DNA of 64,000 nt from an uncultured bacterium (GCA_965371665.1 CBDUZI010000001.1:9411-73410), one strand, 5' to 3'; shown: positions 58,601 through 64,000, numbered from the stretch's first letter. Numbers and translations are program-made. Notes: generated by a model not told the origin, from the letters alone.

Positions 58601-61600
58601 TGGCCCCGGGCTGACGGCTGAAGGATGTCTCGTAATTGGGTAATTTCGTCGGGGCTTAAGTTCCAAGTCTGCTTAAGTAAAGCTAGCGCTGCTTCCCGCT
58701 CTGCCGGAGAAAAATGCGCCACCCCGTTTGCAGTGCCGAACACATTTAAAAGCTCCTGCTCCAGAATCCAGGCTTCTTCCACGAGTCTTGCCTCATTTGT
58801 CAAATCCGGGCGGGCAACCAGACCCTGCATTCTTAAGTCATGCAGGTGGGCATATAGTGCTTTCCGGTATCCCACCAAGGTTACCTGGATGTCACTCTGT
58901 AATATCTGCCCATCCAGCTCGATGTTTTCATGCCCTCCAGTTCTCATATCGGCCGATCGTCTTAAAACACGGATGCGAGGAAGATCCAAGAAACTGGACA
59001 AATCAGGATGAACTCTCAGGATACGGCCTATGCCACGGGATAAATTCAGCAATTGCCGAGGTAGAAGGTCCGCGGTCTGAAGGATTTCAGCCTCTGTATC
59101 CGGCCTGCTTAAATCCAGGCCTCTTTTTGCGGACTTGAACAAATCTGATGCCTTGCGATTGGCGACTCTGTTTATAAATGCATGCAGCGGCTGTTCTTCA
59201 GATATGACGAAAAGAATTCTCAAGACGGTCATCCGGGCTGGTTCAAACAACTCGAGCTGGCTGAGATTTTCCTGCAAGTAGGCCTGGGCCGCAGCCGGAT
59301 CATCGGCAGCCAGATTTTCGAGTTCCTGGTAAAAAGCCGTGACGCGCTCTGACTGCTCACTTTTCCGCTCGGCGCGCTTCGACTCAAGATTGTGCGCTCT
59401 TAAACCCAAGGCCGGATGCGCCATCAGCAGGATAATCTCCATTTTCACCGCTGAGGGCAGGGAACGGATTTCGCCCAGAACCTCTCGACCCGCAACTTGC
59501 TGGGCGACCAGATCCGCGGCCTGGATTTCTTGTTGCGCCAAGCCCTTGGGATGTCTGCTGGATGCCGCCAGCTCATTTATAAGCCCAGGCACAGCTTCTG
59601 CCAGAGCCGGATTCTGGTAGGCGGCTGCCAGCATGCTCGCCAGCACGGCCAGAACCTGTCCCTCGCTGGTGAACTCGCCGCTTGTGCGTGCCTGCTCGAA
59701 TTGGTTCAGCATCTTTCGAAATTGTCTGACCTTGGTCATTCCCAGGATGGACCGATACAGGCTGTTTAAGCCATCTGCCCGGGATGGGGCATCCACTTCA
59801 TTGGCAATCCGGCCGAATTGAGTCGTCGGTTCAATCGGTACCAGCTGGCTCTGGCTGCGACCGTGTAGCCGTTCGAAGAAGAGTCTCGCCCGCATATCTG
59901 TCCGGACCGCTTCGTCACCGTATCTTTCTATCAATTGATACGTGATCGCATCTGCCAGGACCCTCGGGTTGTTCAGTTTGATCAAAGTCTCTGAAACCAC
60001 TACCCGTTTCCGCCTGCTGTCCCAGCGCGTGAAATCCAGAGTGCTCCAGCCGGTTCGTGGCAGAGCGGCCACTTGGAAGGTAATGTCCTTTGGAATGTCC
60101 AGCGTTTTCACTTGGCCGTTTGCCAGGCGAATGCCTTGGGTTTTTAACGCTGTGATGACTCTCTGCCCCACGGTTTGCACCGCGGCCGCAGGTGCCAGAT
60201 TCACCCGCGCCTCGCGCCCGCGACGCACTAACGGGAGGGCCAAGACTACCGCGCCCAGCAGCAAGGTCAAGCCACCCGCCAGGCCTCCAGCCAGCGTGGG
60301 AATGCCGAAGACCACCAGGATATAAACACCTATGCCGGCAACCACCGCGCCCAGGCCAACGGCCGCCCAATCGACCAGGCGCAGGCTGCGCACGGTGCCC
60401 GTCACCAGACGAACCATTTGCCCCGATGCTCCCCTCCCACGGACAATTAGAGGGGCAAAGACGAGGTATAAAAACATCGCAATCGGCAGACCGATGGAAA
60501 TCAGGGTGTCCCTAGCCTGGCTTAGGGCTTTTACTTCGCGGAAAAGGGAAATCCAGAGAGGCGCAATCAGGCTGAGCGTGATGAGCAAAGCGGGTATACC
60601 CAGGGGAACACTTACGAATAGAAGCAAAACCGGTATGGAAAGCACGAGGCCGGTGGTAATTATTACGGCTACTGACTTAAACACCGCGCCGCGGCTGGGA
60701 GAAAGACGGGCAGCGATGGTGTCAGAGAGCGCCAAGGAAACGGCTAGCAAATCCCATGCGTGAGCCAAGAATTCACAGAAAATGACATTCCAAAAAATAT
60801 AGCCAATTGACTTGTTTCCTTTTTCGGCTGCTTGCGCGTATTGGGCAATGGATCGATTGAGTCGCCCTAATACGAGGTCTGCCGCAGTTTGCGCCCAGCG
60901 GTGGGCGTATTGTTCATGCGCCAGAATTACCGGATTTGTAATCCTCTGGCCTTCAGGAGCTACCATCTCCCCTTTTTGCGGATTATATTCTCCGACATTC
61001 TCAGCCAGATGACCCCACATGGCTACCAGGCCGTACTTCTGGTAAAGCGCCCGCATTACCATGCCTACTTTTGTCAGGGCCCAGATTAAATAACCGCCGG
61101 CCACTAGGGATATCAGGGAAAAAGCCGAACCGACCAGCATAATCAGGCCCGCCACGGTTGCAGCACCCAGAACGCCAGGCAGGCTTAAGGGCTGCATGAC
61201 CCGCGGTTCCGCAGAAATGATGGTTAATTCGTTGATCTGCACACAGCTTCCAACCATGTTTTGCGTCTGGATGACCCCAACCTCGAGGTTAAAGGGATGT
61301 TGACCGCTTTGCAATTCATCCGGCAGATAGTCGGCTAAGTTGTAGATAAAAGTCCCCTCTAAAACGGTGTCCGGTTGGAGGCGTACAAACCAGTCAGGCA
61401 TATGGGGAGACTTTAAAACCAGATACCAACCTCCCTGCAGATCAGATACATCGACCCTCATCCGCTGCGGCAGATCCATGTTAAGTACTACCGGCTCTTT
61501 TAACTCGATTCTGCCGTAACTCGGGATACCGCGGTGGATAATCTGGATTCCGTCGGCTTCTACTTGAGTCAACTTTACGTTCCATTCATCAAATCGGGAC

Positions 61601-64000: not shown

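Follow-up and report, generated by a model that had tools for sequence, protein, structure and literature searches.

An intragenic repeat as probable paralogous copies of a boundary module in a giant gene from an uncultured bacterium

We analyzed a 64,000-nucleotide (nt) stretch of DNA from an uncultured bacterium (GCA_965371665.1 CBDUZI010000001.1:9411-73410), referred to here as the window, whose minus strand carries a giant open reading frame (ORF) that contains a direct repeat near the upstream end of its visible part. The two copies of this repeat, A and B, are probably (we estimate a probability of about 0.65) paralogous, diverged copies of a boundary module that recurs throughout a family of giant proteins, in a gene that runs on upstream of the window. 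Bacteria are known to have giant genes, from 10 to more than 100 kb long, but how such genes are put together and how their products enter the membrane and are perhaps cleaved is an open question. The repeat gives a handle on this question, namely a compact, conserved and unannotated module that marks the borders between cargo blocks in the giant genes of two or more candidate phyla. An intragenic repeat by itself is ordinary in a giant gene; the novelty lies in the nature of the repeated unit, a previously undescribed membrane-anchoring module, and in its place at these borders. Taken alone the finding is of moderate interest, which would be higher only if the module indeed proves to be a processing or shuffling element.

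Limits of the repeat

The repeat and its surroundings comprise the following features, where amino acid (aa) positions are counted from the first codon of the ORF in the window.

25663..64000, minus strand: giant ORF that ends at 25663-25665 (stop codon) and has its 5' end beyond 64000; 12,778 codons fall within the window, gene longer than 38 kb
63646..63999, minus strand: repeat copy A (aa 1-118), truncated at the window edge; matches profile positions 106-229 of 231, the C-terminal half of module A
63553..63621, minus strand: extra hydrophobic helix (aa 127-149, from hydropathy) between module A and the GH5 cassette, outside the repeat
62500..63453, minus strand: GH5 (cellulase family) domain; Pfam PF00150 match at aa 219-456
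61210..62487, minus strand: three tandem modules of ~142 aa (beta-modules, aa 505-930), common to the GH5 proteins of FCPU426 that carry a tail of the type IX secretion system (T9SS)
60520..61212, minus strand: complete module B (aa 930-1160); QPLSLPG, helical hairpin, beta-hairpin PVGxYNP, helix AHEQYAHRWAQ, YAQ, GYIFWN, EFLAHAWD and two transmembrane (TM) helices
60544..60897, minus strand: repeat copy B (aa 1035-1152), the portion of module B that matches copy A
60226..60507, minus strand: three more hydrophobic helices after module B (aa 1165-1258, from hydropathy), unrepeated

The original prediction, made from the sequence of the window, had proposed an intragenic direct repeat with a spacing of about 3.1 kb. 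A repeat search of the window recovered it as two copies, 60514-60813 and 63616-63915, with a start-to-start spacing of 3102 nt, and a codon-by-codon comparison refined the limits to 63646-63999 for copy A and 60544-60897 for copy B. The copies align without gaps at 83.1% nt identity (294/354) and 80.5% aa identity (BLASTN E = 1e-105; BLASTP E = 2e-60 over 148 aa); base-shuffled controls for the same comparison gave 26 ± 2% identity, with a maximum of 34%. The spacing corresponds to exactly 1034 codons (3102 = 3 × 1034 nt), and both copies lie in the same frame of one shared ORF. All peptides quoted in the prediction are present, including ILAHEQYAHRWAQ ahead of the internal copy, and the window does cut copy A exactly at WAQ (codon 1 is 63999-63997). 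Also as predicted, a GH5-like domain (aa 219-456) and three modules (aa 505-930) lie between the copies.

The likeness between A and B drops abruptly past the residues LWISL, where the next three 15-codon blocks show 51%, 42% and 18% nt identity, and the two stretches of 916 aa that come next, one behind each copy, had no detectable similarity to each other. A search of the window with a hidden Markov model (HMM) from both copies and with sensitive blastn yielded no third copy. Because the similarity ends this sharply and unrelated sequence follows each copy, the repeated unit is not the “super-module” of the original prediction; only ~118 aa are repeated in the window, out of ~230 aa for the whole module.

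A conserved module without database annotation

To describe the whole unit, we used a 231-position profile equivalent to window aa 930-1160, built by jackhmmer over the relatives and the window protein, which collected 15 copies in 12 proteins. From its N terminus, the module of ~230 aa consists of a QPLxLPG motif, a helical hairpin, the motifs AH[E/D]xxxH, GYxxWN and ExxxHxxD, and two TM helices. Both window copies have a long helix with YAQ, GYxxWN and ExxxHxxD, followed by hydrophobic helices. The N-terminal half (QPLxLPG, hydrophobic hairpin, PVGxYNP, AH[E/D]xxxH) is found at aa 930-1034 for copy B, and the corresponding part of copy A lies beyond the window edge. When aa 940-2110 were used as the query against 1.84 billion representatives with full HMMER, 17 proteins were retrieved, of which eleven are large (1,154-5,599 aa) and match precisely the first ~215 residues of the query.

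Across the aligned copies (alignment A2), Y81 (in PVGxY), A103-H104, H109, Y130-A131, G142-Y143, N147, E152, H156 and D159 are nearly invariant. Searches of Pfam, NCBIfam and the PDB gave no match to the module, and its alignment likewise returned none in a word-index homologue search. The AlphaFold model of the module obtained with this alignment is confident (predicted local distance difference test [pLDDT], 78.9; predicted template modeling score [pTM], 0.61) and helical, with one beta-hairpin.

Copy number and cargo in relatives

When one genome per species was scanned by pattern, the module turned up at six loci, in FCPU426 CSMAG_228 (two contigs), FCPU426 MAG080, Goldiibacteriota DeMMO3_7 and two unclassified metagenome-assembled genomes (MAGs); two partial proteins (P0006 and P0016) come from a further FCPU426 MAG. 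The giant genes carry from 1 to 4 or more module copies each, always between unrelated cargo blocks. Relatives thus differ both in the number of module copies and in the cargo between them. The blocks between modules encode NTP_transferase and DnaJ domains in two loci (L009 and L010), Pkinase in P0016, iPGM in L006, a methyltransferase and a metallophosphoesterase in L007, and GH5 in the window.

The degree of likeness among copies of one gene varies widely. Four copies in the ORF of FCPU426 MAG080 (L009; at least 5,564 aa) are mutually 26-43% identical and the two of L007 are 28% identical; the three copies of the full-length protein P0023 (7,681 aa) share 72-77% identity at distances of 738 and 566 aa, and the two in the window share 72-80%. 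The A/B pair is thus much closer than the module copies in most relatives. Several module copies per gene are thus an old feature of the family, and some genes hold recently duplicated or homogenized pairs.

One candidate counterexample, P0009, in which the module appeared to stand at the N terminus of a protein, was rejected, as its contig consists of overlapping same-strand gene calls such as arise from a frameshift-fragmented giant gene. A similar picture is seen in ENA ERZ25039480 contig_69675 (L011), where nine gene calls on one strand, overlapping or adjacent to one another, take the place of a giant gene with the module. Frameshift errors of a long-read assembly have probably broken up a giant ORF here, which illustrates how databases hide such genes.

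Divergence history of the two copies

The divergence between copies A and B is unevenly distributed, as seen from the nt identity and the nonsynonymous (dN) and synonymous (dS) divergence of three blocks.

aa 1-45: 91.9% nt identity, dN 0.05, dS 0.23
aa 46-75: 61% nt identity, dN 0.34, dS about 2.1 (saturated)
aa 76-118: 89.1% nt identity, dN 0.045, dS 0.32

The 85-90% nt identity estimated in the original prediction thus describes the outer blocks, but neither the 30 central codons nor the repeat as a whole. Mismatches amount to 25/264 positions in the flanks versus 35/90 in the center (Fisher p = 2e-9). Where both copies encode the same residue, the codon itself is identical in 65 of 80 cases in the flanks (28 expected from codon usage) and in 8 of 15 in the center (6 expected; p = 0.04). 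Since the flank codons are far more often identical than codon usage predicts, the flanks are conserved at the DNA level and not only at the protein level. These patterns lend moderate support to what is the most likely history, an old intragenic duplication whose outer blocks may later have been homogenized by short gene-conversion tracts. The alternative history is a more recent duplication with a replaced center.

The longest exact matches between A and B are two runs of 39 nt with one mismatch between them, which is too short to collapse a modern assembly and enough for rare homologous recombination. With 60 of 354 bases differing, the near-identity and the assembly hazard raised in the original prediction were overstated. 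Its suggestion that the repeat is a route for gene growth is plausible in light of the variable copy number and cargo among relatives. Because the spacing is a multiple of three, recombination between A and B would delete or duplicate the GH5 cassette in frame, and the repeat is in this sense a concrete in-frame route for the gain and loss of cassettes.

Continuation of the gene upstream of the window

The reading frame is open through both copies up to the window edge, over more than 38 kb. Its first in-frame ATG, GTG or TTG is codon 50, which lies within the helix conserved with copy B. Copy A begins at profile position 106, whereas the complete copies begin at positions 1-9, and all complete copies in other proteins carry ~105 further residues N terminal to WAQ. 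Given the open frame, the lack of a start before codon 50 and the truncation of module A at position 106, we conclude that the gene continues upstream, as had been predicted. Judged from the sequence, the extension very likely comprises, as a minimum, the ~105 codons that module A lacks in the window.

By analogy with the relatives, the upstream part probably also includes 750 or more codons for the conserved N-terminal domain of the family. This domain opens every full-length relative, stands immediately before the first module in L009 and P0012, and was not found within the window ORF; in the relatives, the distance from the N terminus to the first module is 660 to 3,860 residues. The same analogy makes this domain at least as likely a content of the region just upstream as another catalytic cassette. 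The C-terminal domain of the family, ~770 aa long, is present in the window ORF (25666-27978; E = 5e-92 to P0017) and also in L007, P0008, P0010 and P0013. Homologous giant or partial proteins come from FCPU426, among them P0006, with 44.5% identity to the window ORF over 2,747 aa. The whole giant protein was absent from the protein collections searched, for which it is too long. Scans for the upstream region and homologues returned no match in genome contigs with aa 1-470 or in metagenome contigs with aa 1-190 and with the module alignment.

As to the common domains themselves, the N-terminal domain of the full-length relatives (P0010, P0012, P0013, P0015, P0017 and P0023; also L009 3545-5800) spans ~650 aa without a Pfam match and has the motifs ..TFVFPYLTWAFE.., VHIQDLHCNxEVQ, GGFH and KPRxTxxDxxNPYFSLLRN, as well as TWAFE. 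Their C-terminal domain of ~770 aa ends in ..AA.

Proposed role of the module and alternative explanations

We infer that the module may act as a membrane staple, which would put the chain back into the membrane between successive soluble cargo blocks. Its parts are the QPLxLPG-like motif, the hydrophobic helical hairpin, a small juxtamembrane domain and the further TM helices, and the nearly invariant juxtamembrane His/Glu/Asp cluster on two helices (AH[E/D]xxxH ... ExxxHxxD) would be a putative metal-binding or catalytic center. Modules A and B bracket the cargo of GH5 and three beta-modules; modules set between cargo blocks in this way would tether a string of enzymes to the membrane, and recombination between modules could be a route by which such genes gain and lose cargo. 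We give this functional reading, a membrane staple with a metal center, even odds. The module offers invariant residues that can be mutated and an edge motif that can be traced in proteomic data.

The window ORF holds ~15 hydrophobic clusters, and neither hydropathy nor the positive-inside rule led to a unique membrane topology. Were every predicted helix to cross the membrane, there would be four between loop A and GH5, two between the cargo and loop B, and six between loop B and the N terminus of SecY, which is encoded in the same ORF. All soluble blocks would then face the cytoplasm, which fits the cytoplasm-type cargo of the relatives.

Several points weigh against parts of the overall explanation given here for A and B. 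If every hydrophobic helix spans, their parity puts GH5 on the side of the SecY N terminus and SecA, i.e., in the cytoplasm, yet its closest homologues are T9SS secreted. At the E/D position of AH[E/D]xxxH, roughly every second copy has Asp, and the histidines are missing in one (L009_4), which argues against a strictly conserved catalytic Glu. The inferred gene conversion draws on 30 central codons and a synonymous-site contrast of p = 0.04, and the N-terminal half of module A and all that lies beyond it are predictions.

The original prediction implied a different architecture, in which an N-terminal super-module of TM unit, catalytic domain and accessory modules is iterated and another glycoside hydrolase (GH)-type cassette lies just upstream. 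The upstream extension of the gene agrees with this, as does the recurrence of GH cassettes within the protein (a GH5-like segment at aa 10432-10527 and beta-module-like matches at aa 10854-11058). We nevertheless consider it unlikely: A and B cease to resemble each other after 118 aa, with 916 unrelated aa following each, the blocks between modules are mutually unrelated in the relatives, and the first module in L009 and P0012 is preceded by the N-terminal domain of the family rather than by a catalytic cassette. Far less probable still is that the second copy is an assembly artifact from a chimeric join or a misresolved repeat. The independent short-read contigs of the same population do end before the giant gene, but copies with 17% divergence (60/354 positions) and exact runs of at most 39 nt, flanks unique to each, a frame open for more than 38 kb through both and the same multicopy layout in independent genomes all speak for two genuine copies.

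A module at every cargo boundary could also work as a cis-acting, metal-dependent, peptidase-like processing element that cuts the giant precursor near QPLxLPG and releases the GH5 cassette as a separate product. Its nearly invariant residues form a pattern typical of active or metal sites, a short conserved linear motif stands at the N-terminal edge of every module, and the modules always separate unrelated cargo blocks. West-Roberts et al. 2023 (10.1101/2023.11.21.568195) treat the cleavage of giant Omnitrophota proteins as an open question. Against such a role, structure comparison linked the module to no peptidase, around half of the copies have Asp in place of Glu, and several show a degenerate QPLxLPG (QNLSFLG, QALSFKN, YALSGRG), so that we regard processing as unlikely. 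The H-E-x-x-x-H spacing binds zinc in peptidase family M49 (dipeptidyl peptidase III [DPP III]). The module resembles this site in having the same spacing on a helix and acidic or His ligands on a second helix, which we treat as a lead only. It shares only this first spacing and differs from M49 in that Glu is often Asp, the second motif EExxAE is absent, no fold match was obtained and the module is predicted to be embedded in the membrane. Returning to the boundary-module reading, one extension of it would make the module a metal-dependent punctuation of a bacterial membrane polyprotein, which reinserts the chain and directs its processing or partitioning, perhaps together with the in-ORF SecY-SecA, while recombination between modules shuffles the cargo; this we hold to be improbable as a whole.

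Comparison with known giant genes

The ORF is similar in several respects to the Archaeovorin-type giants of Omnitrophota, as described by West-Roberts et al. 2023 (10.1101/2023.11.21.568195): a single ORF that exceeds 10,000 codons and in which many TM clusters and soluble enzyme domains alternate, a divergent SecA_DEAD without the canonical wing and scaffold, glycoside hydrolase content, and carbohydrate-import neighbors (here, the ABC permeases encoded at 23496-25338 and the solute-binding protein at 261-1571). Unlike the Archaeovorins, it has its nearest relatives in FCPU426 and Goldiibacteriota. The set of glycosyltransferase, methyltransferase, NUDIX and peptidase domains characteristic of Archaeovorins was not found here, where the only Pfam domains in the window ORF are GH5, SecY and SecA; no C39 or S8 peptidase was detected by Pfam within the window part of the ORF. 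A full SecY lies inside our ORF, whereas term searches of the giant-gene papers returned SecA domains in giant proteins and SecY only in separately encoded canonical SecYEG (10.1101/2023.11.21.568195). The window ORF is therefore not an Archaeovorin by lineage or domain set.

According to a 2026 survey of long Omnitrophota proteins (10.64898/2026.06.07.730766), 65% of the Pfam-positive ones repeat a domain at least twice, so that an intragenic repeat is the rule in such genes. Different from the domain repeats described there, the repeat in the window is a membrane module without a Pfam model, present in two copies that are 3.1 kb apart rather than in tandem and that bracket cargo. Term searches of 10.1101/2023.11.21.568195 and 10.64898/2026.06.07.730766 did not return a QPLxLPG/AH[ED]xxxH module.

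The GH5 cassette and its free-standing relatives

The GH5 domain scores 26.4 bits against PF00150, versus a gathering cutoff of 23.5. A word-index search with aa 1-1233 found only four GH5 proteins (P0001-P0004), two from FCPU426 and two from Logan contigs without a taxon name. All four combine GH5 with the same beta-modules, at 31-36% identity to the window cassette, and keep the catalytic NE and E: the acid/base N324-E325 and the nucleophile E416 of the window protein are invariant against these free-standing proteins (alignment A1). They differ in being only 780-1150 aa long, with a T9SS sorting domain at the C terminus (P0002 is the one for which it is annotated) and without the TM module, whereas the window cassette is embedded between two modules.

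The beta-modules contain a second strong intragenic repeat, in which modules 1 and 2 (61652-61951 versus 62075-62374, minus strand) share 85% nt identity over 300 nt at a spacing of 423 nt (141 codons). About 10,000 codons downstream of the first GH5, a divergent GH5-like segment (32419-32706, minus strand; aa 10432-10527) is 33% identical to it and was not called by Pfam, and neither were the beta-module-like matches at aa 10854-11058 of the giant ORF.

An embedded SecY-SecA fusion and other repeats in the ORF

Downstream of module B, the ORF encodes components of the Sec translocase.

56710-57837, minus strand: SecY; Pfam match to profile positions 1-304 of 306, E = 6e-40, complete channel domain
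55708-56430, minus strand: SecA_DEAD; E = 1.6e-15, ~100 aa beyond SecY
54130-54789, minus strand: P-loop_SecA (Pfam)

The embedded SecY matches E. coli SecY structures over TM1-TM10 (E = 2e-34). Apart from SecA_DEAD and P-loop_SecA, Pfam found no SecA domains in the ORF, and the wing and scaffold are missing. A SecY-SecA fusion also occurs in P0006 from FCPU426 and in P0021, and a word-index homologue search with the SecY-SecA region returned only one weak canonical SecA. That SecY and SecA should be naturally fused within their own putative substrate seems a greater surprise than the repeat.

Two further sets of repeated units in the ORF have no Pfam match. Tandem units of ~150 aa at 58015-58926 (minus strand; aa 1692-1848 and 1848-1995) are 44% identical, and a block of ~215 aa recurs 2,060 aa apart with 30% identity (51448-52092 versus 45289-45912, minus strand; aa 3970-4184 versus 6030-6237).

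Genomic neighborhood of the giant gene

No public short-read contig entering the giant gene was found in look-ups via the downstream permeases. Contigs from ENA ERZ23498918 (BioSample SAMN30647028), ENA ERZ25748485 and Logan SRR21487743 (L001-L003) are 99.97-100% identical to window positions 22188-25508. These contigs, of 1.3-3.3 kb, all stop at 25498-25508, ~155 nt past the stop codon of the giant gene.

Directly after this stop codon, at 25621-25662, lies a perfect 17-bp inverted repeat with an 8-nt loop (GGTAACTTGTCAGTCAC..GTGACTGACAAGTTACC), followed by an AT-rich spacer; from its sequence, it looks like a terminator. All neighbors of the giant gene are on the same (minus) strand. Two ABC sugar-type permeases are located directly downstream (23496-25338), and further neighbors at 261-1571, 8126-9601 and 16787-18565 (minus strand) include the solute-binding protein (261-1571), a T9SS/FlgD-Ig-tailed protein, an OmpA-family protein and a DUF6259 protein of 1,738 aa.

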